From Chloroflexota bacterium (GTDB lineage: Bacteria > Chloroflexota > Limnocylindria > Limnocylindrales > CSP1-4), in assembly GCA_003158295.1 (NCBI GenBank), contig PMIP01000093.1:7630-71629 (forward strand): 64,000 nucleotides of DNA, written 5' to 3'. Each line of letters begins with the position of its first letter. The first letter of the stretch is position 1. Both the position numbers and the translations under genes were made by a program. The notes below the pieces were generated by a model. It was not told the DNA's origin. It saw nothing but the letters and a program-made list of their open reading frames with translations, and ran no database searches. This document shows, piece after piece, positions 1,233 to 26,229 of the stretch.

Positions 1233-1236
1233 CGAC

Positions 1237-1610: not shown

Positions 1611-2222
1611 ATGGTGGGCTCCGACTACTGGTCTCGCTACTACGCCGTGACCGTCGACCGTCCAGCGTGGGAGACGGTGAAGCTGGCGCTCCAGCTATTC
1701 GCCGCAGACGATGCCGAACACCCGCGCAAGCGTTTCGCCGTAGACCTTGGCTGCGGGGCGGGCCGAGACGCGCGAGAGCTCCTGCGAGCAGGCTGGAGCG
1801 TTCTGGCGATAGATCGAGAGGCCGGTGCGATCGAGACGCTCCGGGCCGCCACATCGCCGCAGCTCCGTCTGGCTCTCAAGACCCGAGTGGCCAACCTTGC
1901 CACTGTAGACGTACCGGCGTGCGATCTCGTCAACGCCAGCCTCTGCCTTCCCTTCCTCGCTCCCGAGCCGTTCTGGCGGACATGGGAGCGAGTACTCGCA
2001 GCGCTGGCCGTCGGCGGGCGAGTCGCGGCGATGCTGTTCGGAGACCGCGACGGCTCGGCCTCGGATCCCACGATGACGTGCCCGTCGCCCCAGACGATCC
2101 GCGCGAGCCTCGCCTCGTTCGAGATCGAACACTGGGTCGATCGCGAAGAGGAGACTCAGACCGCGCTCGGGGAGCCGCACCACTTCCACCTGGTCGAGCT
2201 GGTCGCCCGCCGGGTGAAGTAG
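1611..2222 (+). CDS. Class I SAM-dependent methyltransferase (TehB/thiopurine-MT-like)
   Basis: 203 aa. Motif I is VDLGCGAGRDARELLRAGWSVLAIDRE, followed by post-I acidic and later motifs. Preferred over the overlapping Arg-rich shadow ORF 1505..2323. Confidence 0.8.
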   Translation: MVGSDYWSRYYAVTVDRPAWETVKLALQLFAADDAEHPRKRFAVDLGCGAGRDARELLRAGWSVLAIDREAGAIETLRAATSPQLRLALKTRVANLATVDVPACDLVNASLCLPFLAPEPFWRTWERVLAALAVGGRVAAMLFGDRDGSASDPTMTCPSPQTIRASLASFEIEHWVDREEETQTALGEPHHFHLVELVARRVK

Positions 2223-2355
2223 CGTCGGACCATCCTTCCCGGCATTTCCACGACCGGGCCAGGACCGGGCGCCCCGGAATATCTAAGCAGTCTACTCAGG
2301 GCCAAAGGGCTGGCACGACGTGACATGCGGAAGGGGACATATGCAGGCAGGTCAT

Positions 2356-2376
2356 CTATTCATATACCACGAATAG
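2356..2376. promoter_or_regulatory. Candidate ArsR-type operator: perfect 6-9-6 inverted repeat CTATTC-ATATACCAC-GAATAG
   Basis: Read directly. It lies in the only AT-rich patch of the 260-bp gap upstream of arsR (GTG 2483). Confidence 0.35.
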
Positions 2377-2482
2377 CTCCCAAGCCCGGAGTCGCCCAAT
2401 GTCGAACCCCTTCCAGGTCTCGCGCGAACACAGCCATGTCTTCCGGCTCGTGTCGACCGCGCCCACAGGCGAGCGCTGAGCC

Positions 2483-2890
2483 GTGTTGCGACCCGAGGAC
2501 GGCATCTACGGCCTTCAGGCCTCGCTCCTCAAGACGATGGCCAGCCCCCGCCGCCTCGAACTGATCCATCTCCTGAGCGAAACCGGCCCGATTGAGGTCA
2601 GGAAGATCGCCGAGCATTTCGGCGATCGCCAGCCGGCGATCTCGCAGCATCTCGCCGCGCTGCGCAGCGTCGGCCTGGTGGAAGCCGTTCGCGACGGGCG
2701 AGAAGTCCGCTATCGACTCGCCGACCCCGAGATCGTGGCCGCTTGCAGCCTGATGCGCCAAGTTCTGATTCGACGGATCGCTCGGCTAGGCGATGTGGCT
2801 GCTGCGTACACCAGCCGATCCGAAGGGACAGAAGGTCAGGTGGGAACGATCGGGCGAGACCCTGTCACGAGCGCATTCCCGCCGAGCTGA
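2483..2890 (+). CDS. ArsR/SmtB family transcriptional regulator
   Basis: 135 aa. LLKTMASPRRLELIHLL...VRKIAEHFGDRQPAISQHLAALRSVGLVEAVRDGREVRYRL is the canonical ArsR wHTH. Single Cys (AACSL). Confidence 0.9.
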   Translation: MLRPEDGIYGLQASLLKTMASPRRLELIHLLSETGPIEVRKIAEHFGDRQPAISQHLAALRSVGLVEAVRDGREVRYRLADPEIVAACSLMRQVLIRRIARLGDVAAAYTSRSEGTEGQVGTIGRDPVTSAFPPS

Positions 2891-2944
2891 GCCCGGTCAC
2901 AACACCCTCGCGAATCAGCCACCTGCAGTAATCGGAGATCAGAG

Positions 2945-3208
2945 ATGAGCGCCCTCAACGTAACCGAGCTCGAAGCCGTCACCGCCGCCGAGATCATCGA
3001 CGCCCGGGGAGCGGCCTGCCCCGGTCCCCTCCTCGACGCCAAGAAGGGGATGGGCAAGATCGCAATCGGCGACGTGATCGAGGTCTGGTCCAGCGATCCG
3101 GCGACGAAGTCCGATATCGGCGCGTGGGCCGGCAAGGTGGGCCACGAGTTCCTCGGCGTCATCGAGGACGACGGCTACGACCGGGTCTTCATTCGACGCG
3201 GCAAGTAG
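2945..3208 (+). CDS. tusA: TusA/SirA-family sulfur carrier protein
   Basis: 87 aa. Active-site Cys-Pro-x-Pro in IDARGAACPGPLL. GGAG RBS 7 nt upstream of the ATG. Confidence 0.85.
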   Translation: MSALNVTELEAVTAAEIIDARGAACPGPLLDAKKGMGKIAIGDVIEVWSSDPATKSDIGAWAGKVGHEFLGVIEDDGYDRVFIRRGK

Positions 3209-3279
3209 CGCGACCGGCGCCGAGCGAGGCAGCGAGACCCTCGCTCGACCGTGCAACGCATCGCAGGAGCACCCGATTG

Positions 3280-3723
3280 ATGACCGCGCTCGCCGCCGCC
3301 CCGGTTGACACCAAGGCGCGGACCGCCGCACCGCGGATTCTCGTCTTCTCGACCAACAACATCTCCGATCCGGGCATCGACCTGGCCGGCAGCGCCCACC
3401 TGCACTACTCGCCCGGAGTGAGGGTCATCAGCCTGCCCTGCACGAGCGGCATTCGGCCGTCGTGGATCCTTCATGCCGTTCAGCAGGGATTCGATGGGGT
3501 CTTCATCGCGTCCGACGGAGACGAATGCGCCTACCTGCCGGATTGCGCCAAGAGGGCGTCGCGCATCGTGGCGGAAGCCCAGACCCTTCTCAAGGCGAAC
3601 GGCTTCGAGGGCCAACGGCTGAAGATGGCGGCCATCTGCTCGGTCTGCGCCGAGAACTTCGCCAAGCACATGACGCAATTCTCGGAGGCGCTCGCCGCGC
3701 TGCCGAGGCCCGGAGCCAACTGA
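3280..3723 (+). CDS. MvhD/FlpD-like (methyl-viologen-reducing hydrogenase delta subunit family) protein
   Basis: Internal ATG of track ORF 3124..3723, with AGGAG upstream. PRILVFSTNNISDPGIDLAG...VRVISLPCTSGIRPSWILHAVQQGFDGVFIASDGDECAYLPDCAKRA matches the family layout. Its stop overlaps the next start (TGATG). Confidence 0.75.
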   Translation: MTALAAAPVDTKARTAAPRILVFSTNNISDPGIDLAGSAHLHYSPGVRVISLPCTSGIRPSWILHAVQQGFDGVFIASDGDECAYLPDCAKRASRIVAEAQTLLKANGFEGQRLKMAAICSVCAENFAKHMTQFSEALAALPRPGAN

Positions 3724-6431
3724 TGACCGATTACGACGCCCTCGTCGTCGGCAGCGGCATCGCCGGCATGGAATCCGCCCTCAAGTTGGGCGACATGGGC
3801 TACAAAGTCTTGCTCGTGGAGAAGGAGGCCAGCGTCGGCGGTCGGATGATCCTGCTCAGCAAGGTCTTCCCCACCCTGGACTGCGCCAGCTGCATCTCTA
3901 CGCCGAAGATGGCCGCCTCGATTCACCATCCGAACGTGACCGCCCTGACCTACACCGAGGTCGACGGCATCTCGCGGGACGGCGACGGCACATTCAAGGC
4001 CACGATCCGCCGGAAGCCGCGCTTCGTGGACGAGGCGGCCTGCACCGGCTGCCAGCTGTGCGAGACGGCCTGCACCGTCGCCGTGCCGGACCAGTTCAAC
4101 GCCGACATGGTCGCGCGCCGGGCCGCGTACATCGCCTTCCCGCAGGCCGTGCCGAAGAAGGCCGTTCTCGAGCGCGCCGGCACCTCGCCGTGTACGTACA
4201 CCTGTCCTGCCGGGATCAAGGCACACGGCTACGTATCGCTCATCCGCAGCGGCGAGTACGAGAAGGCATTCCAGCTCGTTCTGGAAGCGACGCCGCTGGT
4301 CGGCACGCTCGGCCGAGCCTGCTACGCACCTTGCGAGGGCGAATGCACGCGCGGCTCGCTAGAGGGGACACTCCCGATTCGGCGCCTCAAGCGCTTCGCC
4401 GCCGACCGGCACTACCAGGCGATCGATGGGCCCGGCGTTGAGGTCGCGCCGGCCAACGGCAAGGGAGTTGCCGTTGTCGGTTCCGGGCCGGCCGGCCTGA
4501 CCGCCGCCTGGCAGCTCGCCCGCCGGGGTTACCGCGTCAAGATCTTCGAGGCCGCCCCGGTTGCGGGCGGTTTCCTGCGCCTGGCCATTCCCGCGTATCG
4601 TCTGCCGGCCGAGGTCGTGGATCAGGACATCTCCAACGTAACCGGTATCGGCGTCGAGATCGCAACGGACTCGCCTGTCACGGATCTCGAGGCGCTGCGC
4701 CGCGACGGCTTCGATGCTGTGCTCGTGGCGACCGGGACGCCGCTCTCGACCAGCCTGAACGTCCCGGGCGAGAAGCTCGACGGCGTCGTGAGCGGTCTGC
4801 AATTCCTGCGCGCCACCAGGCTCGGCTCCGCGGCTGACCTGACCGGCAAGCGCGTCGTGGTCGTGGGCGGCGGCAACGTCGCCATGGACGCCGCGCGGAC
4901 CGCCGTACGCATGGGCGCCACGGAGACCACGATCGCCTACCGCCGCGGGCGCCAGGAGATGCCGGCCCACAAGACCGAGGTCGACGACGCAGAGCGCGAT
5001 GGCGTCCGTTTCTCGTTCCTGATGGCACCGGTCGAGGTCGTTGACGACGGCTCCGGCAAGGTCACGGGACTGCGGTGCCAGCGCATGGCCCTCGGCAAGC
5101 CGGACGCGTCGGGTCGCAGGCGCCCCGAGCCTATCAAGGGCAGCGAGTTCGTCCTCCCCTGCGACACCGTTCTGGTCGCGATCGGGATGGCGCCCGAAGG
5201 ATCCGCCTTCGGCGGGCGCTGCGCCTCGAACGCAAACGGCACCCTCGTCGCGGATCCGGCAACTCTCCAGACGGGAGTCCCTCACGTGTTCGCAGCTGGC
5301 GACGTCACGACAGGCGCCTCGGACATCACGCGGGCCGTCGGCCAGGGGCGTCGGGCCGCGCACATGATCGACCGCTGGCTGAGGGGCGAGCCTCTCGCCG
5401 GGTTCGAGATGGACGAGGCCCTGCCGGTCGTGGACAAGACGAAGGTTCTGACCCGCCAGGTCGGCTACACGCACAGCACCGCGCCCGAATCCGCGTCCGG
5501 TTCGACCGTCAAGCGGGACTTCGCCGAGATCGAGGCGCCCATGACCGAAGCCGAAGCGCTTGCGGGCTCAAGCGACTGCCTCGACTGCGGCGTCTGCTCC
5601 GAGTGCCAGGAATGCGTTACGGCATGCCCGTCGGATGCGATCCACCTCGACATGCGCGAGCAGATCGAAGAAGTGAGCGTCGGGGCGGTGGTCGTCGCTA
5701 CGGGCTACAAGCTCTTCGCCGCCGACGCCAAGCCCGAGTACGGCTTCGGCCGCTACAAGAACGTGATCACGGGCATGCAGATGGACCGTCTCCTCGCCCC
5801 GACGCGGCCGTACAACACGGTCCTTCGCCCGGGCGACGGCAAGGTTCCCGAGCGGATTGCCTTCATCCTTTGCACCGGCTCACGCGACGAGACTGTCGGC
5901 AACCCTCTCTGCTCGCGGTTCTGCTGCATGTACTCCATCAAGCAGAACCAGCTGATCATGGGAGCTCTGCCGCTGGCCGAAGTCACGGTCCACTACATGG
6001 ACATCCGGGCGCCGGGCAAGCGTTACGACGAGTTCTACGAAAGCGCCAAATCGATGGGCGCCACGTACGTCAAGGGCCGCGTCGCGAAGATCACCGAGAA
6101 GGACGACGGCAACCTGATCCTGCGCTACGAGGACATCGAACACGGCGGGGCGCTCGTCCAGGCCGAGTACGACATGGTCGTCCTGGCAGTGGGCGTCCAG
6201 CCGAACCGGGAGGTCGACCGCCTGTTCAGCGGCGACGATCTCGCGCTCGACGTCTACGACTACGTAGCCGAGCCCAACGAGGACATGGACCCAGGCCGGA
6301 CCAGCATCCCGGGCGTCTTCGTCGCTGGCGCGGCATCAGGTGCCAAGGACATCACGGACTCGATCCTGCACGCCGGAGCGGCCGCAGCTCAAGTGGCAGC
6401 TCACCTGGAGAGCCTGAAGGTGCCGGCATGA
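3723..6431 (+). CDS. hdrA: HdrA-like flavoprotein with an inserted NfnB/GltD-like NAD(P)H:FAD oxidoreductase module
   Basis: Internal ATG of track ORF 3462..6431, 902 aa.
- HdrA parts: DALVVGSGIAGMESAL, CTGCQLCETAC, CLDCGVCSECQECVTACP, CSRFCCMYSIKQ, IPGVFVAGAASG.
- Residues ~153-560 match the GltD/NfnB small-subunit pattern: SPCTYTCPAG...GRACYAPCEGECTRG, VAVVGSGPAGL, RVVVVGGGNVAMD, VFAAGDV. Confidence 0.85.
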   Translation: MTDYDALVVGSGIAGMESALKLGDMGYKVLLVEKEASVGGRMILLSKVFPTLDCASCISTPKMAASIHHPNVTALTYTEVDGISRDGDGTFKATIRRKPRFVDEAACTGCQLCETACTVAVPDQFNADMVARRAAYIAFPQAVPKKAVLERAGTSPCTYTCPAGIKAHGYVSLIRSGEYEKAFQLVLEATPLVGTLGRACYAPCEGECTRGSLEGTLPIRRLKRFAADRHYQAIDGPGVEVAPANGKGVAVVGSGPAGLTAAWQLARRGYRVKIFEAAPVAGGFLRLAIPAYRLPAEVVDQDISNVTGIGVEIATDSPVTDLEALRRDGFDAVLVATGTPLSTSLNVPGEKLDGVVSGLQFLRATRLGSAADLTGKRVVVVGGGNVAMDAARTAVRMGATETTIAYRRGRQEMPAHKTEVDDAERDGVRFSFLMAPVEVVDDGSGKVTGLRCQRMALGKPDASGRRRPEPIKGSEFVLPCDTVLVAIGMAPEGSAFGGRCASNANGTLVADPATLQTGVPHVFAAGDVTTGASDITRAVGQGRRAAHMIDRWLRGEPLAGFEMDEALPVVDKTKVLTRQVGYTHSTAPESASGSTVKRDFAEIEAPMTEAEALAGSSDCLDCGVCSECQECVTACPSDAIHLDMREQIEEVSVGAVVVATGYKLFAADAKPEYGFGRYKNVITGMQMDRLLAPTRPYNTVLRPGDGKVPERIAFILCTGSRDETVGNPLCSRFCCMYSIKQNQLIMGALPLAEVTVHYMDIRAPGKRYDEFYESAKSMGATYVKGRVAKITEKDDGNLILRYEDIEHGGALVQAEYDMVVLAVGVQPNREVDRLFSGDDLALDVYDYVAEPNEDMDPGRTSIPGVFVAGAASGAKDITDSILHAGAAAAQVAAHLESLKVPA

Positions 6432-8170
6432 GTAAGCAGCCAGCAAGCGAGCGGCGGCTCGGCGTCTACGTCTGCCACTGCGGTGGAAACATCTCCGACT
6501 ATGTAGACGTGCAAGCCGTCGTCGACGCCGTGAAAGACGAGCCCGGCGTGGTCGTGGCGAAACACACCATGTTCGCCTGCTCGGATGCGGGCCAGCAGGA
6601 GATGGAAGAGGACATCGCCGCCAACGATCTGGACGGTCTGGTCGTGGCCTCGTGCTCGCCCAAGCTCCACGTCGTGACGTTCCGGGGCGTGGCCAAGCGG
6701 TCCGGCATGAACCCCTACGAGTACAACCAGGCCAACATCCGCGAGCAATGCTCCTGGACCCACACGGATGACCCGGCCGGTGCCACGAGCAAGGCCATCG
6801 GCCTGGTCCGGGGCGTCATAGCGCGCACCCGTCTTTCCGAAGCGCTCGAGCCGCTCGTCGTCGAGACTACGCAGAAAGCGCTCATCATCGGCGGTGGGGT
6901 CGCTGGTCTGAGAGCAGCCATCGGCCTGGCGGACATCGGGCTCGGCGTATTCCTTGTGGAGCGCGAGGCCGAGCTGGGTGGTTGGGTTGGACGGTTCGGT
7001 CCGATCTACCCGCACGAACGCAATGGCCACGAGCTGATCTCCAGCCTGATCGAGGAGGCCAGGAAGCGGCCGGCGATCAAGATCTTCACCGGAGCCGAAA
7101 TCGTCAGCAAGACCGGCAGCTTCGGCAACTACGCGGTGGGCGTCCGAGTCGCGACCGAACCGCCCCAGACGATTCAGATTGAAGTCGGCTCGATCATCGT
7201 CGCCACCGGCTTCGACTCGTATCGACCGGCCGACGGGGAGTTCGGCAGCGGCATGGACGGCGTCGCCACCCTGCCCGAGTTCAAGGAGTTGATCGATGCC
7301 GCCGCGGGAGCGGGCCTGCGCTATCGGGGCAAACCGGTCCGGAGCCTGGCCTACATCTACTGCGTCGGGAGCCGCCAGCCCGACGGCAACGAGTACTGCT
7401 CGCGCTTCTGCTGCACCGCGACGGCGCATGCCTCGATCCGCGTCGCCGAACTGGACCCGAATGTCCGCCAGTACCACCTGTATCGCGACATCCGGACCTA
7501 CGGTGCATTTGAGCTGCTGTATACCCAGGCGCGCAAAGACGGGGCGATCTACGTCAAGTTCCCCGACGACGCGCCGCCGGTCGTGGCCGCTGACAAGTCC
7601 GGTGGGCTGACCGTCACCGTCCGAGACCTGCTCTCCGGTGACGAAGAGCTGGAGATCCCGGTCGATTTGGTGGTCCAGGTGACCGGCATGGTGCCTCGGG
7701 CGAACACGGACCTCGTCGGCCTCCTCAAGCTGCCACTGGGCAAAGACGGTTTCTTCAACGAGATCCACCCGAAGCTGCGGCCGGTGGAGACCATGGTCGA
7801 CGGTGTGCTCATCGCCGGGGCATGCCAGGGACCCAAGAGCTCGGCCGAGAGCGTGGCTTCGGGTCTGGCTGCGGTCACGCAGAGCGCGTCCGTACTCAAG
7901 AAGGGTTCGGCCGAGCTGGATCCACTCGTCGCCACGGTCGATCCGGACGCTTGCACGTGGTGCGGCAAATGTCTCGACGCGTGCCCATACGGCGCCATCG
8001 AGCAGCTTTCGCTCAACGGCCGCGAGGTCGCGACGATAAGCGTGGCCGGCTGCAAGGGCTGCGGCGGATGCGTCCCGGTGTGCCCAGAGAACGCCATCGA
8101 CCTGCGCGGCTACACCGACGCCCAGATCACGGCGATGATCGACGGCCTGCTCCAGGAGGCCATCGCATGA
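6428..8170 (+). CDS. hdrA: HdrA-like flavoprotein, full-length type (N-terminal 4-Cys domain, FAD domain, C-terminal 2x[4Fe-4S] ferredoxin domain)
   Basis: Internal ATG of track ORF 5075..8170, with ATGA overlap on the previous stop. Motifs: VYVCHCGGNISD...FACSD...ASCSPK, ALIIGGGVAGLRAA, CSRFCCTATAH, CTWCGKCLDACP and CKGCGGCVPVCP. Confidence 0.9.
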   Translation: MSKQPASERRLGVYVCHCGGNISDYVDVQAVVDAVKDEPGVVVAKHTMFACSDAGQQEMEEDIAANDLDGLVVASCSPKLHVVTFRGVAKRSGMNPYEYNQANIREQCSWTHTDDPAGATSKAIGLVRGVIARTRLSEALEPLVVETTQKALIIGGGVAGLRAAIGLADIGLGVFLVEREAELGGWVGRFGPIYPHERNGHELISSLIEEARKRPAIKIFTGAEIVSKTGSFGNYAVGVRVATEPPQTIQIEVGSIIVATGFDSYRPADGEFGSGMDGVATLPEFKELIDAAAGAGLRYRGKPVRSLAYIYCVGSRQPDGNEYCSRFCCTATAHASIRVAELDPNVRQYHLYRDIRTYGAFELLYTQARKDGAIYVKFPDDAPPVVAADKSGGLTVTVRDLLSGDEELEIPVDLVVQVTGMVPRANTDLVGLLKLPLGKDGFFNEIHPKLRPVETMVDGVLIAGACQGPKSSAESVASGLAAVTQSASVLKKGSAELDPLVATVDPDACTWCGKCLDACPYGAIEQLSLNGREVATISVAGCKGCGGCVPVCPENAIDLRGYTDAQITAMIDGLLQEAIA

Positions 8171-8418
8171 CCGCAGTCAAACGGGAGATCAGGGAGATCG
8201 TCCGCGAGGAGCCGTTTATGCGGGGCCGGATCCTTGCAGCCCTCGCCGAAGGGCCCCACACAGTCCCGGAGATCGCCGAAGCTATCGGTCGGCCGGCCAA
8301 TGAGGCGATGTACTGGGTCATGGGGATGCGCCGCTACGGCTGGGTCCGTGAAGTCAAGGAAGCCGCGGTGGATGGCTACTTTCGATACCAGGCAGTAGCC
8401 AGGGAGCAGCGGTCATGA
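8167..8418 (+). CDS. Small (83 aa) winged-helix-like protein embedded in the hdr/qmo-like operon
   Basis: ATGA overlaps at both ends (8167-8170 and 8415-8418). RGRILAALAEGPHTVPEIAEAIGRPANEAMYWVMGMRRYGWV looks like an HTH plus wing. Confidence 0.65.
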   Translation: MTAVKREIREIVREEPFMRGRILAALAEGPHTVPEIAEAIGRPANEAMYWVMGMRRYGWVREVKEAAVDGYFRYQAVAREQRS

Positions 8419-9554
8419 CGACTCGCGTCGACCGAAACCTCTACCCCGAACTGCAGCGCTACGGCGCCACAGACATCTCGGCCTGCTTCAACTGCGGAGT
8501 CTGCACCGCGATCTGCCCTCTTTCCGTCGACGGAGCGTCGTTCCCGCGGCGGATGTCGCGCTACGCCCAGCTGGGGATGCGAGAGAAGCTCCTCTCCAGC
8601 CCCGAACTGTGGTCGTGCTACGGCTGCTCAGAGTGCACGGATTCATGCCCGACCCAGGCCGACCCGGCCTCGTTCATGGCCGCGGCTCGCCGCTACGCCG
8701 TAGCCAGCTACGACCGGACCCATCTGGCCCATTACCTGGCCACCTCGAAGGTCTTCGCCCTCGTCTTCGTGACAGCCCTGGTCGGGTTGCTGGCGGCGTT
8801 CATGTACTCCGTCCACAAACCCGTCGACGGCTCGACGCTGGCCTTCTTCGACTTCGTTCCCTCCGATGCGATCCACAACATGGGCATCGCCGTCATGGCG
8901 ATCATGGGAGCGGCCGCCCTGATCGGGCTCCTGGAGATGGTCCGGCGTGTCTTGCGCGGCCCCGCCACGGGCGCGGCGAAGGCCACGGTTCGTAAGACGG
9001 CGGACGCAGCCTGGAACGCCGCGGCCGTGGAGTCGTTGGCCCAGACCCGCTTCCGCCAAGACTGCGCCGACGCCACCGAGACCCGGCCGTGGTATTCCCA
9101 GCGCTGGTTCATCCACTTCGCCACGATGTGGGGCTTCCTGGGCCTGCTCGGCGCCACGATGCTCGACTACGGGCTGGAGTTGGCGGGCCTGAAGGCGACC
9201 GGAACGCCGGTGCCGATCTGGTATCCGGTCCGAGTGCTCGGCACGCTGGCCGGCGCCGCGCTGATCTACGGCACAACGGTCCTCATCGTCCGCAGGCTGC
9301 GCCGCAGCGACCGTTCGAGCCTACACTCGACAACGTCCGACTGGACGTTCCTGTCGATGCTGTGGATCGCCGGCGTGACCGGCTTCATCCTGGAGCTCGG
9401 GCTCTATCTTCCCAGCGCGCCGTCATGGGGTTATCCGATGTTCCTGGTCCACGTCGCGGTAGCGATGGCCCTCGTGCTGTTGGTCCCGTTCGGCAAATTC
9501 GCGCACGTCCTGTACCGTCCGGTCGCGCTCTTCGCCATCCGGTTGCGGGGCTAG
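8415..9554 (+). CDS. QmoC-like subunit: HdrC-like 2x[4Fe-4S] domain fused to an HdrE/NarI-like six-helix cytochrome b domain
   Basis: 379 aa. CFNCGVCTAICP and CYGCSECTDSCP are followed by six hydrophobic helices with conserved His (IHNMG, IHFATMWG, LVHVAV, FAHVLY). Confidence 0.8.
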   Translation: MTTRVDRNLYPELQRYGATDISACFNCGVCTAICPLSVDGASFPRRMSRYAQLGMREKLLSSPELWSCYGCSECTDSCPTQADPASFMAAARRYAVASYDRTHLAHYLATSKVFALVFVTALVGLLAAFMYSVHKPVDGSTLAFFDFVPSDAIHNMGIAVMAIMGAAALIGLLEMVRRVLRGPATGAAKATVRKTADAAWNAAAVESLAQTRFRQDCADATETRPWYSQRWFIHFATMWGFLGLLGATMLDYGLELAGLKATGTPVPIWYPVRVLGTLAGAALIYGTTVLIVRRLRRSDRSSLHSTTSDWTFLSMLWIAGVTGFILELGLYLPSAPSWGYPMFLVHVAVAMALVLLVPFGKFAHVLYRPVALFAIRLRG

Positions 9555-9564
9555 GAGGCTGATC

Positions 9565-10146
9565 ATGGCGAGCAAGCGAAGGAACGGAGGCCCGGGTTCG
9601 CGTTCGGCCGCGCCGGTCAGCCGAGGCAGGGCCGCGCCGGTCAGCCGAGGCAGGGCCGCGCCGGCCGCCACGGACCGGAACAGGCTCTACCTGGCTATCG
9701 CCGGCGGTGCCTTGGCCTTGCTGGCCGCGTTCGCGATCGCTTTCGTCGCGCTCGCCGGCGGCGGTTCCAAGGCCGCGCCCAGCCTGTCCACCGGCCAGAC
9801 GATCGTCCAGGGCCAGGGGGGCCAATGGACCAACGTCACGCCGGACCGGCTGGCCCAGATGATTCAAAGCAAGGACTTCACGCTGGTGAACGTCAAGACG
9901 CCCTACATCGGCGAGATCGATGGCACCGACCTCTACATCCCGTACGACCAGCTCACCGCCCGCGCCTCGGAGCTGCCTTCCACCAAGTCGGCCAAGATCC
10001 TGGTCTACTGCCGCAGCGGGGCGGAGAGCGCCCAGGCCGCGCAAACGCTCCTGAACCTCGGCTACACCAACCTCTGGAACCTCGATGGCGGCATGAATGC
10101 CTGGCAGGCGTCCGGGCGGACCCTGGTCCAGAAGAACCGCCAGTAG
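9565..10146 (+). CDS. Membrane-anchored rhodanese-domain sulfurtransferase
   Basis: 193 aa. AGGAGG RBS. One TM helix (LYLAIAGGALALLAAFAIAFVAL). Rhodanese active-site loop YCRSGAES and GGMNAW. Confidence 0.85.
   Translation: MASKRRNGGPGSRSAAPVSRGRAAPVSRGRAAPAATDRNRLYLAIAGGALALLAAFAIAFVALAGGGSKAAPSLSTGQTIVQGQGGQWTNVTPDRLAQMIQSKDFTLVNVKTPYIGEIDGTDLYIPYDQLTARASELPSTKSAKILVYCRSGAESAQAAQTLLNLGYTNLWNLDGGMNAWQASGRTLVQKNRQ
9607..9664 (+). repeat. 24-nt tandem direct repeat (2.4 copies) inside the rhodanese gene
   Basis: gccgcgccggtcagccgaggcagg occurs exactly twice (9607-9630 and 9631-9654), plus 10 nt of a third copy. It encodes AAPVSRGR-AAPVSRGR-AAP in the cytoplasmic tail. Confidence 0.95.
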
Positions 10147-10290
10147 AGCGCCGACGGCGGCTCCAGCCCGGCCTCGAGAGTGATCGCAGGGCCGCCCGAA
10201 GCCTTTCTACCTGTCCATTTGACACGCGGCCACGCGGTCTCGGAACCAGGAGCCGCTCAAGCCAGCCATATCTCTAGAGGAGCACCATTC

Positions 10291-10686
10291 GTGAAGATCG
10301 CAATCGCTACCGATGACGGACGTACTGTCAGCCACCACTTCGGACGGGCCGCCTACTACTCAGTCCTGACCGTCGAAGACGGCGCCGTGGTCGCACGCGA
10401 GATGCGTCCCAAGTTCTCGCCTCACGGGTCCGGCATTGAGGTCCATGAGGAGCGCGAGGCGGGCCCGCACGGAGTGGGCCCTGCCTCGGATGCCCGCCAC
10501 GATCAGATGGCGGCGGCCATTGCCGACTGCTCCGCGGTCATCTGCGGCGGGATGGGCAAGGGTGCATACGATAGGCTCGCGGCCAACGGCATCAGGCCCG
10601 TCGTGACCGACCTCCAGGACGTCGACGAGGCCGCCATCGAATGCGCGACCGGACGCATCGTCGATCACGCGGAGCGGCTGCACTGA
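10291..10686 (+). CDS. NifX/NifB-type (dinitrogenase FeMo-cofactor biosynthesis domain family) protein
   Basis: GTG start with GAGGAG RBS, internal to track ORF 10180..10686. VKIAIATDDGRTVSHHFGRAAYYSVL...AVICGGMGKGAYDRLAANGIRPV is the family pattern. Confidence 0.7.
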   Translation: MKIAIATDDGRTVSHHFGRAAYYSVLTVEDGAVVAREMRPKFSPHGSGIEVHEEREAGPHGVGPASDARHDQMAAAIADCSAVICGGMGKGAYDRLAANGIRPVVTDLQDVDEAAIECATGRIVDHAERLH

Positions 10687-10750
10687 TCGTTGTCTCATAG
10701 ACCGAGCCGTTGGGCCTTCCTGCGGCTCCGAATAGGTGGAGGACGCCGTC

Positions 10751-11041
10751 ATGCTACATATCGTGGTTATGAGGCATAACGCTGAGAGCTTGGCCTTCCG
10801 CTCCGAGGAGCACCAGAAGAACGAGCGAACCGCGTTCACACGGCTGCAGGCACTGGGCAAGGATCACGACGCCCGCCTCGAGGGCGCGTGGGTCAACACC
10901 GGCGCGCACACTACGTTCGCCCTGGTCGACGCGCCCAGTGCTCACGTGGTGAACAAGCTCCTCGAATTGTCCGGGATCGTCGCGTGGGAAGACGCGACCG
11001 TCTACGCCGTCACGCCCGTGGAAACGCCGGAGACGCAGTAG
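10751..11041 (+). CDS. Small hypothetical protein (DUF3303-like by eye)
   Basis: GGAGGA sits 7 nt upstream of ATG 10751. The track start GTG 10736 would overlap this RBS. MLHIVVMRH...WVNTGAHTTFALVDAPSAHVVNKLL...VYAVTPV. Family assignment is tentative. Confidence 0.5.
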   Translation: MLHIVVMRHNAESLAFRSEEHQKNERTAFTRLQALGKDHDARLEGAWVNTGAHTTFALVDAPSAHVVNKLLELSGIVAWEDATVYAVTPVETPETQ

Positions 11042-11248
11042 GCCGCCACGGCCCACTGATCCGACCACCAGCTCCCGACCTCCTTGGTAGCGGATCGTGC
11101 ATTTGCGCAATGGCTCTTGCGCTGCTCCGAGGAACCCGAGGCGAGCGGGGCCAGCTCCATGATGATCGGGGCGACATTCGTTGGCCGGATCCCGGACTCT
11201 TGACGCACCTGTCGTTGGGGTGTACGTGGGGGTCCAGGAGGGTTGACG

Positions 11249-11752
11249 ATGCAGAACTTGCCCCGAGTGTCCCACGAGCACCACGACCGACTGTTGCTCT
11301 ACGTCGACCAGCTGAACTCGCTCGCCGACCGCCTGAGCAGCGACTCCCTGGACACGACCAGGCTCATCGAGGGACTGCCGGAACTACGGGAGCTTCACGA
11401 CGGCCTGACGAACATGCTCATTCCGCACATGGAGGCCGTCGAGGCGGCCGTCTATCCCACCCTCGAACGGCTCCTGGCCGACCGTCAGACGACGGCCCCC
11501 ATGGCCCGCGAGCATGTCGAGATTCGTCGGCTCGTGGGGGCGATCGGCGAGTTCGCCGAGCACCCTCAGGCCCACGCCGACCGGGGCGCCGTGCTGGCGC
11601 TGCGCCGCGTCCTCCTGCGGCTCTACGCTCTGCTCAAGGCGCATCTCTCGGAAGAAGAGCTGTACATCCCCATCCTGGAGGACAACTTGACGCCCGCGCA
11701 GGAGGCGGCGCTCGCGCGGGCGCTCGACCACGTGGCGGCGGAAAGGCTGTAG
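11249..11752 (+). CDS. Hemerythrin/HHE cation-binding domain protein
   Basis: AGGAGGG sits 6 nt upstream of ATG 11249 (the track start is TTG 11243). His/Glu-rich four-helix pattern: HEHHDRLL...IPHMEAVE...REHVEIRR...LKAHLSEEE. Confidence 0.75.
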   Translation: MQNLPRVSHEHHDRLLLYVDQLNSLADRLSSDSLDTTRLIEGLPELRELHDGLTNMLIPHMEAVEAAVYPTLERLLADRQTTAPMAREHVEIRRLVGAIGEFAEHPQAHADRGAVLALRRVLLRLYALLKAHLSEEELYIPILEDNLTPAQEAALARALDHVAAERL

Positions 11753-13407: not shown

Positions 13408-13746
13408 CTACTCCCTCTCCAGCGGCCGATTGGTTCGAGCCCAGGCATCCGTTCCGCCACGGACCGAGGCCGCGCCCTCGAATCCCGACGTCAACAGGAA
13501 ATCCGTCGCGGCAAGGCTCCGACTGCCGCTCTCGCAGATGATGAGGATTCGCTTGTCTCGGGGGAGGTCGGCGGCTTGCCGAGCGAACTGGCTCAGAGGG
13601 ACGTTGAGCGCGCCGGGGACGCGACCCCGTCGATACTCCCAGGCCTCACGGACATCCACCAGGCGAACTCCGCCGTCGCGCAGGAATTCGTCGAGCTCTT
13701 CGACGCTTATCTCGGGCGTGGCCCGGCGAGAGAACGACTGCACCAT
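13408..13746 (-). CDS. Single-domain rhodanese sulfurtransferase
   Basis: Internal ATG of track ORF 13408..13956. LVDVREAWEYRRGRVPGALNVPL...ILIICESGSRSLAA...GGTDAW. Confidence 0.85.
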   Translation of the reverse strand: MVQSFSRRATPEISVEELDEFLRDGGVRLVDVREAWEYRRGRVPGALNVPLSQFARQAADLPRDKRILIICESGSRSLAATDFLLTSGFEGAASVRGGTDAWARTNRPLERE

Positions 13747-13786
13747 CTGCTCTAGCTCCGTACGGGGTTTACGTGCTTCCTTCTTC

Positions 13787-14071
13787 TCAGTTGGCGAGCA
13801 GGCCGAGCGCGCTGTCGATCCGAGCCTGGTCGAAACCCACGATCGGGCTACCGTCGACCTCGATGACCGGCACGCCCATCTGCCCGGTCCGGCGCACCAG
13901 ATTTCGCGCGGCCGCCGGGTCGCGGCTGACATCCACGTCGCGGAACGGAACCCCACGGGTGCGGAGATACGTCTTGGCGCGCATGCACCAGACGCACGTG
14001 GGCGACGAGTAGACGATGACGCGATGCGTCCCGCCCGTGGAAGTGGCCTTATGCGAGAGGTAGCTACCCAT
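13787..14071 (-). CDS. Glutaredoxin-like (NrdH/YruB-type) protein
   Basis: Internal ATG of track ORF 13787..14230. VIVYSSPTCVWCMRAKTYL (CxxC) ...GVPVIEVDG. Confidence 0.8.
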   Translation of the reverse strand: MGSYLSHKATSTGGTHRVIVYSSPTCVWCMRAKTYLRTRGVPFRDVDVSRDPAAARNLVRRTGQMGVPVIEVDGSPIVGFDQARIDSALGLLAN

Positions 14072-14475
14072 CAGTCCGACTCCAGAGATGCGATTACCCG
14101 GCCGAGACGCTCTCGAGCCTCCGCGGCCACATTCTTGACTTCGATCGATTCGGCGATCCCGACGACCGCCAGGGGATCCATGGCCTCGACGATGGTGTCC
14201 ACGCCTTCCTGACGCAGGACTACGTTGCATGGCAGCAGCACGCCGACCGACGGCTCCGCTTCGAGCGCCCGGTGCGCCAGAACAGGATTGCAGGCGCCCA
14301 GGATCAGGTAGGGCGCCCCGTCAACGCCGAGCTTCGCCTTCATCGTCGCTGCGACGTCGATCTCGGTCAGGACCCCAAAGCCCTCGGCCTGGAGGGCAGC
14401 CTCTACCCGCGGTCGTGCCGCAGAAACGGGGCCGCCCAGTCGAATCCCGAGCGTGTAGCCGGAAGCATTGGTCAT
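14071..14475 (-). CDS. DUF302 domain protein
   Basis: Internal ATG of track ORF 14071..14568. FGVLTEIDVAATMKAKLG...YLILGACNPVLAHRAL...GVLLPCNVVL matches the family pattern. Confidence 0.75.
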   Translation of the reverse strand: MTNASGYTLGIRLGGPVSAARPRVEAALQAEGFGVLTEIDVAATMKAKLGVDGAPYLILGACNPVLAHRALEAEPSVGVLLPCNVVLRQEGVDTIVEAMDPLAVVGIAESIEVKNVAAEARERLGRVIASLESD

Positions 14476-14682
14476 GATCGGCTCGACCCGGCGGCAGCAC
14501 CGACTGGCCGCGCGAGATTGGACGACCAGCTTCTCGCCGGCCGCTTGAGATCTGTGAGAACCCTGCATACCTCGGCAAGGAGCCTGTTTCGCTCCGGGTC
14601 CCGATTCGCCTTATCTTTCATCGGTGCCTCTTGCGCGCCTCACCAGCAAGGTCGCTTGCCTGGCACACTAACACTTATTGCG

Positions 14683-14696
14683 TACTTGCGCAAGTA
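14683..14696. promoter_or_regulatory. 14-bp perfect palindrome TACTTGCGCAAGTA in the divergent DUF302/TauE control region
   Basis: Read directly. It is flanked at a distance by an 8-bp inverted pair, CCTTATCT (14609-14616) and AGATAAGG (14699-14706). Confidence 0.35.
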
Positions 14697-14737
14697 ACAG
14701 ATAAGGACCAGACCTTGTCGATCCGAACCCCCGGCCG

Positions 14738-15580
14738 ATGACCCCGCAGGCCGACTTCGGCATATTCGCCGTCAGCGTGTGCGCCGGCCTGATCGGATCG
14801 CTGGCCGGAGTTGGGGGAGGGATTCTCGTGATCCCCGCCCTGACCTTCGTGTTCGGCGTGGACATCCACCTCGCCGTCGGCGCCAGCATCGTGTCCGTGA
14901 TCGCGACGAGTTCCGGGGCCGCGGCGGCGTACGTCCGGGACCGCATGACCGATATGAGAATCGGCATGTTCCTGGAGCTGGCAACCACCACGGGGGCGGT
15001 GACGGGAGCGTTGCTGGCCGCCGTGGTGGCGCCGGCGTTCCTGTACGTCCTTCTGGGTGTGGTCTTGCTCGGCTCGGCTGCCATGCACGCAGGACGGCTG
15101 AACGAGGAGACGCCGCCGGCAGAACCGCCGTCGCGGATTGCCGCGGCGATGAAACTGAGCTCGTCCTATCCGGACCACCGGCTTGGCCGCGAGGTTCCCT
15201 ACACCGCTCGGCGCGTGCCGCTCGGCTTCGCGCTGATGTGGATAGCCGGGGTCGTGTCGGGGCTGCTTGGCATCGGATCGGGTGTTCTCAAAGTACTCGC
15301 CATGGACGGAGCGATGCGTCTGCCGATGAAGGTCAGCTCGGCCACGAGCAACTTCATGATCGGGGTCACGGCCGCGGCCTCGGCCGGGATCTACCTGGGG
15401 CGCGGCGACGTCGATCCGCAGATCGCGGCGCCGGTTGCGCTCGGCGTGCTGGCTGGAGCGCTGATTGGGGCTCGGCTGCTCAACCGGGTATCGAACCGCG
15501 CGGTTCGGCTGGTCTTCCTGCCTGTGCTCGTGGCCGTGGGTATCGAGACCATTGGCCGCGGATTGGGGTTCGGACTATGA
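14738..15580 (+). CDS. TauE/SafE (DUF81) family sulfite/organosulfur anion exporter
   Basis: 280 aa, about 8 TM. Gly-rich repeats GSLAGVGGGILVIP and GLLGIGSGVL. Confidence 0.8.
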   Translation: MTPQADFGIFAVSVCAGLIGSLAGVGGGILVIPALTFVFGVDIHLAVGASIVSVIATSSGAAAAYVRDRMTDMRIGMFLELATTTGAVTGALLAAVVAPAFLYVLLGVVLLGSAAMHAGRLNEETPPAEPPSRIAAAMKLSSSYPDHRLGREVPYTARRVPLGFALMWIAGVVSGLLGIGSGVLKVLAMDGAMRLPMKVSSATSNFMIGVTAAASAGIYLGRGDVDPQIAAPVALGVLAGALIGARLLNRVSNRAVRLVFLPVLVAVGIETIGRGLGFGL

Positions 15581-15939
15581 GCCCGCAGCGCTTTCGCCTG
15601 ATGGTGAGCCTGGTCCTGGCGGTGGGCGTGGGCGTAAGCGCCACCCTCATCGGCGCGGGCTTCGTTGCGGCCCTGGCAGTCGGCTGGCAGGGGTCGCTTG
15701 TCGGGGTGACCACGACGGCGAGCGCGCCGACCACCGACTTCGGCGGGCTGACCTCCCGCTTGGGAATCCTGGAGCCGCTCGCCATCGCCCAGCTCGGACT
15801 TCTGACGCTGCTGGCCACGCCCGTAGTGCGAGTGGCGGCGTCGGTGGTCGCGTTCGCGTCCGAGGGCGACCGCCTCTACACCGCGATCACGGCAGTCGTG
15901 CTGGCGATTCTGCTGGCGAGCATATTCCTGCTGCGCTAG
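15577..15939 (+). CDS. DUF1634 membrane protein (usual TauE partner)
   Basis: Internal ATG of shadow ORF 14779..15939, with ATGA overlap on the tauE stop. Three hydrophobic helices and TPVVRVAASVVAF. Confidence 0.65.
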   Translation: MSPQRFRLMVSLVLAVGVGVSATLIGAGFVAALAVGWQGSLVGVTTTASAPTTDFGGLTSRLGILEPLAIAQLGLLTLLATPVVRVAASVVAFASEGDRLYTAITAVVLAILLASIFLLR

Positions 15940-15996
15940 AGCGACGCCCTGTTGCCCGGCGGCACGCCCACCGGACCCGGGCAGGTCGAAGCTCGC

Positions 15997-16527
15997 CTAG
16001 ATGAAGAGCGTGGAGTCGGCCTCGGTCATGAGCTGGAGCGCCGTGGCTGCCCCGACGGGTTCTTCCATGCCATCGAGCAGGTCTTCGCGCCGCAGGCCGA
16101 ACATGTCCATGGTCATCTGGCACGGATAGAACTTGACCCCGAGAGCCATGGACATCTCGAGCAGATCCTTGGGCTTGGAGACGTTGTACTTCTTGGCGAG
16201 CTGGAACATCATCCACGGCCCCATGCCCATGAAGTTCATCTTGCTCAAGGGTCGGTGGCTGACGCCGGGCCGCTTCATGAAGGACATCATCTTCTGCATC
16301 CAGTTCTGGCCGGTGATGCGCTTCTTGTCCTTCACGAAGGTCTGAAGGCCCCAGAAGGTGACGAAGACCGAGGTCTCCATCTCCATGGCCGCGGCGGTGG
16401 AGGTCAGGATCATCGTCGCCCAGGTCTTCTCCAGCTCGCCGCTGTAGTCGATGATGACTAACTTCTTGGTCTTGATGGCGCCTTCGGACGAGGTCTGGAT
16501 CACGGGGGCGGTTGCGACGGCGGACAT
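15997..16527 (-). CDS. DsrE/DsrF-like (DrsE_2) family protein
   Basis: Internal ATG of track ORF 15997..16776, with AAAGGAAC RBS. KLVIIDYSGELEKTWATMILTSTAAAMEMETSVFVTFWGL...VKFYPCQMTMDMFG. Confidence 0.75.
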   Translation of the reverse strand: MSAVATAPVIQTSSEGAIKTKKLVIIDYSGELEKTWATMILTSTAAAMEMETSVFVTFWGLQTFVKDKKRITGQNWMQKMMSFMKRPGVSHRPLSKMNFMGMGPWMMFQLAKKYNVSKPKDLLEMSMALGVKFYPCQMTMDMFGLRREDLLDGMEEPVGAATALQLMTEADSTLFI

Positions 16528-16586
16528 TGGATCGTTCCTTTCGCGGCCAGCGGATCGCCTGCCTCGGCGTCCCCGCGGAGGCGCTG

Positions 16587-16823
16587 CTACTTGTGTCGAA
16601 ACACGAAGCGGTACTTGCCATCGGCCGAGTCGGACTCGACGAGAGCGTTGCCGGTCGAACCGGCCCATGCCGCGAAGTCCTTGACCGAGCCGGGATCCGT
16701 AGCGACGACCTCGATCAGCTCCCCGGAGGCGACGGTCCTGATCGCCTGGGTCGCCTTGAGAATCGGCAGCGGGCACGATAGGCCGGTTGCGTCGACCTTG
16801 AGCTTGATGTCGAGATTGCCCAC
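16587..16823 (-). CDS. tusA: TusA/SirA-family sulfur carrier protein
   Basis: 78 aa. VDATGLSCPLPILK (Cys-Pro-x-Pro) and ATDPGSVKDFAAWA. Confidence 0.85.
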   Translation of the reverse strand: MGNLDIKLKVDATGLSCPLPILKATQAIRTVASGELIEVVATDPGSVKDFAAWAGSTGNALVESDSADGKYRFVFRHK

Positions 16824-16887
16824 GCGATCTGCTCCTTGCTGGTTCGTGGCCGATCCGCTTCGCTCTCTCAGCGGTTGGATCGGCTGG

Positions 16888-17301
16888 CTAGATGAATACG
16901 ATCTGGCCCTCGCCGGCGTTGATGTAGAAGGCGGCCACGCCTTCGATACCGTTCACCAGGGGATCGAGATCCGACTGCTTGAGCTTCAGGAGATCCATCG
17001 ATGCCGAGCAGGCCTGGATGTCTACCTCGCCGAGCTCCTTGGCCATGCGCAGCGCGTCGGCCCAATGGGCCTGGCCTGTCCTTGCGGCAGCGTCGAACGC
17101 GAGCTTGCCGGCCTCTCCGGCCTCGGGCGCAAGGCCGTGATCGGCCGCGATCCGGTCGGCCCGGAACGCGTTCAGACCCCAGTACTGCAGGAAGATCTTC
17201 ACCGGCTTGCCGAGGGCGGCCGCACCGGCGACGAGGGTCGCGGCGGCCTGGAGCTTATCGTCCGTGCCGGAGAAGAGCACCAGGGAGATCGTTTCGTCCA
17301 T
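16888..17301 (-). CDS. DsrE/DsrF-like (DrsE_2) family protein
   Basis: 137 aa. ISLVLFSGTDDKLQAAATLVAGAAALGKPVKIFLQYWGL...VDIQACSASMDLL. Confidence 0.75.
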   Translation of the reverse strand: MDETISLVLFSGTDDKLQAAATLVAGAAALGKPVKIFLQYWGLNAFRADRIAADHGLAPEAGEAGKLAFDAAARTGQAHWADALRMAKELGEVDIQACSASMDLLKLKQSDLDPLVNGIEGVAAFYINAGEGQIVFI

Positions 17302-17309
17302 GGTTGGCC

Positions 17310-17690
17310 TCAGCTGATTGTCTGGTTGGCGGCGGCCGCGGACGCACGTCCTGCGAGCACTTCGGCCGGGGTTCGCGTGGCTGCCTGGGAGATTCGCGAG
17401 AGCCTGCGCACGAGCACGCCGCGCATCGTTTCGCAGGCGCAGATGATCTCGGGGTCGCTCAGGCGGTAGTGGACCTCACGGCCCACCCGCTCTGATTCGA
17501 CGACGCCCGCCGACCGCATCAACGCCAGGTGCTGGGAGACGTTGGGCTGGCTGATCCCAAGCTCTTCAGCCAGCCTGCTTACCTCGTGCGGACCCTCGGC
17601 CAGAAGGTGGATGATCTCGAGCCTCTTGGGGTTTGCGAGCGTCTTGAGCACTTCCGCTTGGAGTCGGTACACCTCGTCCATGCCAGGCAT
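17310..17690 (-). CDS. ArsR/SmtB family transcriptional regulator (paralog of 2483..2890)
   Basis: 126 aa. LKTLANPKRLEIIHLL...VSRLAEELGISQPNVSQHLALMRSAGVVESERVGREVHYRL. CxC pair (IICACE). Confidence 0.9.
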   Translation of the reverse strand: MPGMDEVYRLQAEVLKTLANPKRLEIIHLLAEGPHEVSRLAEELGISQPNVSQHLALMRSAGVVESERVGREVHYRLSDPEIICACETMRGVLVRRLSRISQAATRTPAEVLAGRASAAAANQTIS

Positions 17691-17699
17691 TCTTGGTCA

Positions 17700-26179: not shown

Positions 26180-26229
26180 TGACGCGGCGGCAGGAGATCG
26201 AGATCCGCCCCCGCCGGACGGAGGCAGAA

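Follow-up and report, generated by a model that had tools for sequence, protein, structure and literature searches.

A candidate type II Qmo-like HdrA complex linking menaquinone and NADPH to TusA/DsrE sulfur carriers in a Chloroflexota bacterium

HdrA-based complexes are the standard models of flavin-based electron bifurcation, and TusA and DsrE proteins form the standard cytoplasmic sulfur relay. The two have so far been joined only in the sHdr sulfur-oxidation system, via HdrB and lipoate proteins, and only for sHdr has a TusA/DsrE relay feeding an Hdr-type enzyme been established (PMC11094781). Type II Qmo, described by Neukirchen et al. (2023), is found both where Apr and Dsr are present and where they are lacking; V. 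moutnovskia and A. degensii, which reduce sulfate, have it, and the authors give its function as unknown and call for experiments (PMC10504309). HdrL, a fusion of HdrA and GltD, is encoded with an adjacent MvhD in Desulfobacterium autotrophicum (PMC2702500). In S. fumaroxidans, production of HdrABC/HdrL is confined to sulfidogenic conditions, the proteins being abundant only in the presence of sulfate (PMC5947623), and HdrA-NfnB fusions occur in ANME-1 (PMC9012536). This study concerns a nine-gene locus of a Chloroflexota bacterium, located at positions 2483-10686 of a 64,000-nucleotide stretch of contig PMIP01000093.1 that was analysed as a whole (hereafter the window). The locus may encode a "type II Qmo"-like HdrA complex through which sulfane sulfur borne by TusA and DsrE proteins would be connected to menaquinone, NADPH and probably ferredoxin, a reading to which we give about an even chance. 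The architecture of this predicted complex is well supported by the domain content of its subunits; the sulfur chemistry and its direction we infer by analogy.

The nine open reading frames (ORFs) are co-directional on the plus strand, and the G+C content of the window is 66-70%. Reading of the sequence, together with Pfam and NCBIfam scans, bore out the coordinates, overlaps and family identities proposed in the first-pass annotation; the start of mvhD is corrected to 3280, and that of the last gene is discussed below. The stop of mvhD and the start of hdrL overlap as TGATG (3721-3725), and ATGA start/stop overlaps are present at 6428, 8167 and 8415. The four-base overlaps couple the run of hdrL, hdrA, a small winged-helix gene (wHTH) and qmoC translationally, and the TGATG couples mvhD to hdrL. 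At the junction preceding the rhodanese gene, TAGGAGGCTGATCATG stands before 9565, with an AGGAGG that overlaps the TAG and is followed by the ATG at 9565. A promoter and terminator scan of positions 2200-11300 returned nothing beyond the shuffled expectation, and no riboswitch or other RNA was found inside the operon. Four independent contigs from peat metagenomes (L001-L004), up to 411 kb long, have an identical locus. Named homologues and the nearest genome, L007 (96% identical), assign the host to the Chloroflexota, class Limnocylindria (Ellin6529).

The core of the locus begins with mvhD (3280..3723, plus strand), which encodes a [2Fe-2S] electron-transfer subunit (PF02662, MvhD/FlpD, 2.3e-29), and continues with two HdrA-type proteins. 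Both of these have a FAD site and the CxGxR...CSxxCC cluster motif (CTGSRDETVGNPLCSRFCC and CVGSRQPDGNEYCSRFCC), and both align to 5ODC_A, the HdrA of M. thermolithotrophicus. The first is encoded by hdrL (3723..6431, plus strand) and consists, according to Pfam, NCBIfam and PDB matches, of 902 residues in which an HdrA core of the thioredoxin-reductase type carries a GltD/NfnB insert. Its FAD-binding fold stands at the very start, and the protein has neither the N-terminal HdrA domain nor the C-terminal ferredoxin domain. The inserted ferredoxin domain opens and is then broken by about 480 residues of NfnB/GltD type, a FAD/NADPH/2x[4Fe-4S] module recognised by Pfam as Fer4_20 and Pyr_redox_2 (residues 154-542); the second half of the HdrA core then completes the protein, up to residue ~895. 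The NCBIfam matches (PRK12771 with 485 bits; HdrA2 with 458 bits, in two pieces) and the PDB matches (residues 155-631 to StnC/NfnA-type chains and residues 620-893 to HdrA 5ODC_A) agree with this division, and the second Rossmann fold contains the NADPH-type motif AYRRGRQEMPA ("YRR" site). The NAD(P)H-type module that the first-pass annotation had assigned to one of the HdrAs is thus present. As a single chain that unites an HdrA core with a FAD/NAD(P)H module of GltD/NfnB type, and with mvhD adjoining its gene, the protein is an HdrL as defined in PMC2702500.

The second protein, HdrA (6428..8170, plus strand; 580 residues), comprises an N-terminal cluster domain, a FAD core and a C-terminal 2x[4Fe-4S] ferredoxin domain (NCBIfam HdrA2, 474 bits). 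It matches 5ODC_A with a phmmer E-value of 2e-117, in two alignments covering residues 8-239 and 244-577, which skip 5ODC_A residues ~241-310, that is, the inserted ferredoxin domain. It had been described as a full-length HdrA, which must be withdrawn in view of this gap. There is exactly one inserted ferredoxin domain per HdrA/HdrL pair, and it is located in HdrL.

The QmoC-like membrane subunit (8415..9554, plus strand), whose N-terminus matches HdrC chains, combines an HdrC-like 2x[4Fe-4S] domain with a six-helix membrane domain. Its match to the NCBIfam qmoC model NF038018 (7e-59) runs nearly end to end (residues 9-372 against model positions 5-358 of 360), with a score of 200 bits against an equivalog cutoff of 300. 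Two CxxCxxCxxxCP motifs and four histidines are conserved in an alignment of 40 diverse homologues, and the histidines are predicted to form two haem b sites. The Qmo-like composition noticed in the first-pass annotation, with two HdrA flavoproteins, MvhD and QmoC, is therefore upheld by the Pfam and NCBIfam matches. A TcuB/CitB identity, suggested by a precomputed PF27541 match, was rejected: the scores of 57 and 53 bits lie far below cutoffs of 524 and 247, the qmoC score is far higher, and there is no TcuA-like neighbour.

The small wHTH protein (8167..8418, plus strand; 83 residues, no cysteine) gave weak HTH_20/TrmB matches and has the conserved motif GPxTVPEIA...AMRKYG. Its gene overlaps its neighbours on both sides (ATGA at 8167 and at 8415) and lies between hdrA and qmoC, or between hdrA and hdrC in the soluble sister cassettes described below. 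A DsrD-like or DsrC-like identity was rejected, as a PDB profile search and Pfam scans of 41 homologues returned only generic ArsR/TrmB winged-helix matches. A single-sequence AlphaFold model, with a pLDDT (predicted local distance difference test) of 74 and the wing modelled as a helix, was not reliable enough to base a fold search on. The generic ArsR/TrmB-like fold would suit a view in which these are neighbouring genes rather than one complex, the wHTH protein being for example a DNA-binding regulator and QmoC serving another partner. We consider this view very improbable, as the start/stop overlaps extend through mvhD-hdrL-hdrA-wHTH-qmoC, the order is conserved across phyla, and the domains are complementary: the C-terminal ferredoxin domain of HdrA corresponds to the HdrC-like part of QmoC, and each pair has one inserted ferredoxin domain.

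TusA (2945..3208, plus strand; 87 residues) belongs to PF01206 (5.8e-20) and is homologous to E. coli TusA 3LVJ. Its single cysteine lies in the CPGP motif at residues 25-28, and this cysteine is invariant in 62/62 cassette TusAs; with the PF01206 fold and an active cysteine in a CPxP motif, the protein is a TusA-type sulfur carrier. Between arsR and tusA, where close relatives have ~434 nt with a dsrE gene of 121 codons, the window has a deletion scar of ~100 nt (2817..2916), as determined by blastn against L007, L008, L050, L010 and L015 (L007 equivalent 4067-4500). The deletion amounts to ~334 nt and changed the C-terminal tail of ArsR at the breakpoint; the DsrE of the relatives at this site matches PF02635 at 5e-14. 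As the deletion is shared by four independent metagenome assemblies (L001-L004), it is a real population variant.

To assess the conservation of the cassette, an alignment of representative QmoC-like proteins was used to fetch 80 loci from species-representative genomes, with QmoCs 36-96% identical to that of the window; the QmoC-family search matched at least 595 loci. The loci were compared by tblastn with the window proteins and by de novo clustering of all ORFs, and gene counts cover the 59 loci whose upstream flank reaches 6.3 kb or more. The cassette order is (arsR)-dsrE-family-tusA-mvhD-hdrA-hdrA (long)-wHTH-qmoC-(dsrE-family), the first hdrA being either short (~450 residues) or an HdrL and the second long. 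tusA was found directly upstream of mvhD-hdrA-hdrA-(wHTH)-qmoC in 58 of the 59 loci, mvhD in 57, two or more hdrA genes in 56, a flanking dsrE-family gene (product matching PF02635 or PF13686) in 55, wHTH in at least 46 and an upstream arsR in 34. Synteny of tusA and dsrE at these frequencies is the strongest support for the link to sulfur carriers that the first-pass annotation had proposed. The hosts are peat, sediment, lake and bioreactor bacteria labelled as Chloroflexota, Actinomycetota, Bacteroidota, Acidobacteriota, NC10, Desulfobacterota, Spirochaetota and Latescibacteria, and one further cassette lies on a partial contig labelled Heimdallarchaeota. Because the gene order recurs in about nine phyla, it goes far beyond chance.

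No recurrent catalytic partner emerged from de novo ORF clustering of the flanks of the 80 loci. YeeE/YedE genes occur in three loci, as do genes for coenzyme A-disulfide reductase (CoADR)-rhodanese proteins. In five Bacteroidota loci (L062, L065, L067, L074 and L080, at ~1000-3600), an HdrD-like Fer4+CCG gene and a class-V aminotransferase gene precede the cassette; the aminotransferase is cysteine-desulfurase-like, which hints at cysteine as the sulfur source for TusA in these loci.

Given the best NCBIfam match of its membrane subunit, the locus could alternatively encode a conventional Qmo whose partner, AprAB or an enzyme of the Dsr type, has its genes at a distant site of the genome. Pfam scans of the called genes and remaining ORFs of the 64 kb found no Apr, Sat, Dsr or CCG-domain gene, tblastn gave no HdrB match in the window, and no called gene had a CCG Pfam match, so that the absence of aprBA, sat, dsr and CCG-domain hdrB reported in the first-pass annotation holds. 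In the related loci, neither aprBA nor sat was among the recurrent neighbours of any of 160 of them (80 from genomes and 80 from metagenomes; 0/160), and dsr was likewise absent from these neighbours. This absence refers to the window and the flanks of related loci, and both organisms with type II Qmo named above are sulfate reducers (PMC10504309). Nevertheless, the QmoC score lies below the equivalog cutoff, the cassette occurs in lineages that are not known for sulfate respiration, and type II Qmo also occurs without Apr or Dsr (PMC10504309). A conventional Qmo therefore seems improbable.

A second form of the cassette was recognised in L066, a metagenome-assembled genome (MAG) of the Thermoleophilia, where tusA-mvhD-hdrL-hdrA-wHTH-hdrC-hdrB-dsrE2 (13986-21142, minus strand) lies beside a QmoC cassette of the short type, i.e. 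with a short first HdrA. The CCG domain of the L066 HdrB was confirmed by Pfam. A metagenome scan with this HdrB, followed by tblastn, found the soluble order on essentially every contig long enough to judge; the soluble cassette always has HdrL and often stands beside a short-type QmoC cassette. One organism thus keeps membrane and soluble versions side by side. In L066, L089, L102, L106, L109 and L145, the soluble cassette is often convergent with the short-HdrA QmoC cassette of the same genome.

The core proteins of the window are closer to the soluble cassettes than to the short-type QmoC cassettes: identities are 61-72% versus 21-37% for MvhD, 59-67% versus ~35-51% for HdrA and 51-65% versus ~27-49% for wHTH, and HdrL, absent from the short type, is 60-67% identical to its soluble counterparts. 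The low identity to short-type cores holds even in the Limnocylindria loci L018, L026, L028 and L029, in which ArsR (69-75%), TusA (62-66%), QmoC (56-74%) and rhodanese (70-81%) resemble those of the window. Because the core is closest to the soluble form while TusA and QmoC are closest to short-HdrA QmoC cassettes, the MvhD-HdrA-HdrA-wHTH core (window 3280-8418) has been exchanged in situ as a block between the ArsR-DsrE-TusA and QmoC-rhodanese flanks. Such a swap between conserved flanks makes the carriers and QmoC the constant functional frame. The first-pass annotation had held that regular adjacency to hdrBC would mark a conventional Qmo or Hdr; the closest relatives of the core are indeed regularly followed by hdrC-hdrB, but these sisters keep tusA and dsrE2 and are not conventional Hdr cassettes.

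In the reading that we favour, MvhD, HdrL, HdrA and probably wHTH would form a cytoplasmic flavin/iron-sulfur module docking on the dihaem QmoC. Electrons would pass, in either direction, between quinone, the haems b, the QmoC clusters, the C-terminal clusters of HdrA and the HdrA/HdrL flavins, and on to the inserted-ferredoxin clusters, the NfnB-type FAD and NADP(H); MvhD and ferredoxin would be possible further entry or exit points. The C-terminal ferredoxin domain of HdrA would face the HdrC-like N-terminus of QmoC, as the same domain feeds HdrC in HdrABC. This wiring within a single complex is modelled on HdrABC-MvhAGD, NfnAB and Qmo. The two-electron substrate would be sulfane sulfur that TusA/DsrE carry as a persulfide or polysulfide and that is either made from sulfide or reduced to it. 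Sulfane sulfur on TusA/DsrE is proposed as the substrate or product because these carriers are the only invariant non-redox partners, both in the QmoC and in the HdrBC forms. The potential of S0/HS- (~-270 mV), which lies between those of menaquinone (~-75 mV) and NADP+/ferredoxin (-320 to -450 mV), fits flavin-based bifurcation or confurcation, although we infer bifurcation and persulfide chemistry by analogy. The ArsR and the sulfur-stress genes around it suggest that sulfur compounds induce the operon.

This reading is favoured by the sister cassette, in which the same core is joined to a disulfide-type module (HdrB) while TusA and DsrE2 are kept. Several points weigh on the other side. A recognised sulfur- or disulfide-active site was not found in the QmoC cassettes, which have no CCG domain and no redox-active cysteine pair, and TusA and DsrE have one active cysteine each and no cofactor. 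The window itself has lost the adjacent dsrE, and the rhodanese domain probably lies across the membrane from the cytoplasmic module. Finally, all relatives come from uncultured organisms; homology searches and a cluster look-up for a cultured host gave only MAG and metagenome proteins.

The lack of a sulfur-active catalytic subunit would be expected if the enzyme were an NAD(P)H/ferredoxin:menaquinone oxidoreductase without a sulfur substrate, comparable to EtfABCX/Fix or to a reversed Nfn on a membrane anchor, with TusA and DsrE serving in regulation, in iron-sulfur supply or maturation, or as co-regulated sulfur-stress genes. All cofactors for NADPH-quinone(-ferredoxin) transfer are present, and the lineage of the window tolerates the loss of the adjacent dsrE. 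On the other hand, short-HdrA cassettes without the NAD(P)H module still hold tusA and dsrE, the adjacency of tusA across phyla and its invariant cysteine are hard to explain as housekeeping, and in the sister cassette HdrB and DsrE2 accompany this core. We regard an enzyme of this kind as unlikely.

A further proposal extends the sulfane-sulfur reading to the family as a whole, namely that these cassettes represent a class of flavin-based electron-bifurcating complexes that depend on sulfur carriers, a class that would be widespread and so far unrecognised. We put this forward as speculation, and its probability is low. Sulfane sulfur or sulfide on TusA/DsrE would be the mid-potential donor (or, in reverse, the acceptor in confurcation), and its electrons would be split, one branch leading through QmoC to menaquinone and the other through HdrL or the inserted ferredoxin domain to NADP+ or ferredoxin; the soluble sister cassette would have an HdrB site in place of the quinone branch. 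If this is true, sulfide would give low-potential reductant without the expenditure of proton-motive force.

The first gene of the locus encodes an ArsR-family regulator (2483..2890, plus strand; Pfam HTH_5 4e-12; NCBIfam ArsR/SmtB 79 bits) with one conserved cysteine, in alpha-5. A two-cysteine persulfide sensor of the BigR/SqrR type was considered for it and rejected, only one cysteine being conserved. A second sulfur-trafficking island lies at 13408..17690, identified by Pfam on the identical contig L001, by further Pfam matches (DrsE_2, HTH_5) and by tblastn. It comprises minus-strand genes for rhodanese, glutaredoxin and DUF302, plus-strand genes for TauE and DUF1634 and then, again on the minus strand, dsrE2-tusA-dsrE2-arsR. 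Its TusA and ArsR are 37% and 58% identical to those of the operon, and its DsrE2 is a further paralogue found by tblastn; the island supplies the DsrE-family carriers lost from the main operon.

A neighbourhood rich in ArsRs, TauE, DUF302, glutaredoxin, OsmC, rhodaneses and DsrE2-TusA-DsrE2 could also point to an ArsR-controlled detoxification module for sulfide or reactive sulfur, which would neither conserve energy nor bifurcate electrons. Persulfide borne by TusA/DsrE would then be reduced by NADPH, in the manner of a SudA/NfnB-type sulfide dehydrogenase, or oxidised to the quinone pool. GltD/NfnB modules have NADPH:polysulfide activity in vitro (P. furiosus SudAB/NfnI), and CoADR-rhodanese genes, whose products are persulfide-reductase-like, accompany some of the related loci. 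For such a task, however, five subunits with about ten iron-sulfur clusters, two flavin subunits and two haems are elaborate, the ArsR is without the two-cysteine BigR/SqrR pattern, and short cassettes have no NADPH module. A detoxification module is thus a rather unlikely explanation.

The rhodanese gene (9565..10146, plus strand) encodes a membrane-anchored single-domain protein (PF00581 4e-12) with the active-site loop CRSGAES. Nine arginine or lysine residues lie within its first 40 residues, followed by one hydrophobic segment, a transmembrane (TM) helix, at residues ~41-65; by the positive-inside rule, the rhodanese domain is probably extracytoplasmic. Being predicted to face outward, it would not be the cytoplasmic end of the TusA relay. 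Its N-terminus (window 9595-9660) contains a tandem peptide repeat, AAPVSRGR x2, and on contig L002 the gene caller began 49 codons downstream, so that the start at 9565 is a provisional assignment. The gene was found only in Limnocylindria loci (13/59). The first-pass annotation had the operon open with TusA and close with the rhodanese; tusA proved to be syntenic (58/59), whereas the rhodanese is specific to the Limnocylindria.

The last gene encodes a NifX/Nitro_FeMo-Co-domain protein of 131 residues (10291..10686, plus strand; PF02579 9e-17). Its likelier start is the GTG at 10291, with a GAGGAG ribosome-binding site, as called in L001. Because a gap of 144 nt precedes this start, the gene may form a separate transcription unit. 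It too was found only in Limnocylindria relatives, and the first-pass interpretation is weakened for this gene as it is for the rhodanese.

Elsewhere in the window, hypE, hypD, hypC, hypF and hypA maturation genes lie at 17858-23221 (minus strand), and no [NiFe]-hydrogenase structural gene was found anywhere in the 64 kb. Positions 24800-34400 hold a radical-SAM gene and, in two distinct sets, genes for 2-oxoacid:ferredoxin oxidoreductases; because of these oxidoreductase genes, the host should make reduced ferredoxin, which is relevant to a ferredoxin-coupled role. Genes for acetyl-CoA transferases and for electron-transfer flavoprotein (ETF)/acyl-CoA dehydrogenase are also present downstream. 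An S8 peptidase gene (54518-56359) is immediately preceded by a c-di-GMP-II riboswitch (56374-56458, minus strand; Rfam RF03169, 68.7 bits, E 1e-11). At 387-1449 (minus strand), a protein of 281 residues combines an extracytoplasmic function (ECF) sigma factor with a zf-HC2 anti-sigma domain in one chain, and the adjoining gene encodes a YgaP-like TM (DUF2892) protein of 70 residues, a domain that often accompanies membrane rhodaneses.

No description of the tusA/dsrE-mvhD-hdrA-hdrA-wHTH-qmoC (or hdrCB) cassette was found in the accessible full-text literature. The claim that the composition is wholly without precedent is weakened, as both the HdrA-GltD fusion (PMC2702500, PMC9012536) and type II Qmo (PMC10504309) are known. 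The occurrence in many phyla of such a cassette, with an exchangeable NADPH module and a soluble sibling that has HdrBC, suggests that a connection of the cryptic sulfur cycle with the pools of quinone, NAD(P)H and ferredoxin has been overlooked in organisms that are not regarded as sulfur metabolisers. It also offers an experimental handle on what type II Qmo does and on which substrate HdrL complexes use.

Among the known systems, EtfABCX/Fix is a possible functional analogue, being a membrane-associated NAD(P)H/quinone/ferredoxin flavoenzyme that bifurcates electrons from NADH to ferredoxin and menaquinone (PMC10734219), but it is built from unrelated protein families and has no sulfur-carrier linkage. 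The MvhAGD-HdrABC complex of methanogens (PDB 5ODC), which serves as the model of flavin-based bifurcation, resembles the locus in its HdrA architecture, in having a [2Fe-2S] subunit, MvhD, and in its dicluster domain of the HdrC type. In contrast, the present locus has no hydrogenase and no HdrB, its HdrA pair is asymmetric with a single inserted ferredoxin domain, and its high-potential branch would end in a haem b/quinone subunit. HdrL systems likewise have HdrA fused to a GltD/NfnB module with mvhD adjacent, which S. fumaroxidans combines with HdrABC; those HdrL and HdrA-NfnB systems are soluble and are associated with DsrABC, formate dehydrogenase (Fdh) or HdrBC, whereas QmoC and TusA are found here, and a tusA/dsrE link has not been reported for them.

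QmoABC of type I, from sulfate reducers and Chlorobi, is similar in its two HdrA-like flavoproteins, its MvhD module and its QmoC with 2x[4Fe-4S] and two haems b, as well as in linking the quinone pool to a cytoplasmic sulfur enzyme. Here, however, MvhD is separate rather than fused to QmoB, a winged-helix subunit is added, and the flavoproteins are nearer to true HdrA (they score as HdrA/HdrA2), one of them with an NfnB/GltD module; tusA/dsrE are linked in place of aprBA/sat, and QmoC reaches 200 bits against the 300-bit cutoff. Type II Qmo resembles the locus by description only, in that its QmoAB are nearer to HdrA than to bacterial QmoAB and its QmoC is divergent; the tusA/dsrE linkage, the winged-helix gene and the HdrL variant are not mentioned there (PMC10504309). 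The sHdr-LbpA system offers a parallel for the sulfur side, as an Hdr-type complex fed, genetically and functionally, by a TusA/DsrE3 relay (PMC11094781). Its set of hdrC1B1A-hyp-hdrC2B2 and lbpA is not found in the window, which has no CCG-domain gene and, among its annotated genes, none for a lipoate-binding protein. sHdr combines HdrB1/B2, HdrC1/C2, a minimal HdrA and LbpA, whereas the present cassette has QmoC, MvhD and an NfnB module, none of which occurs in sHdr.

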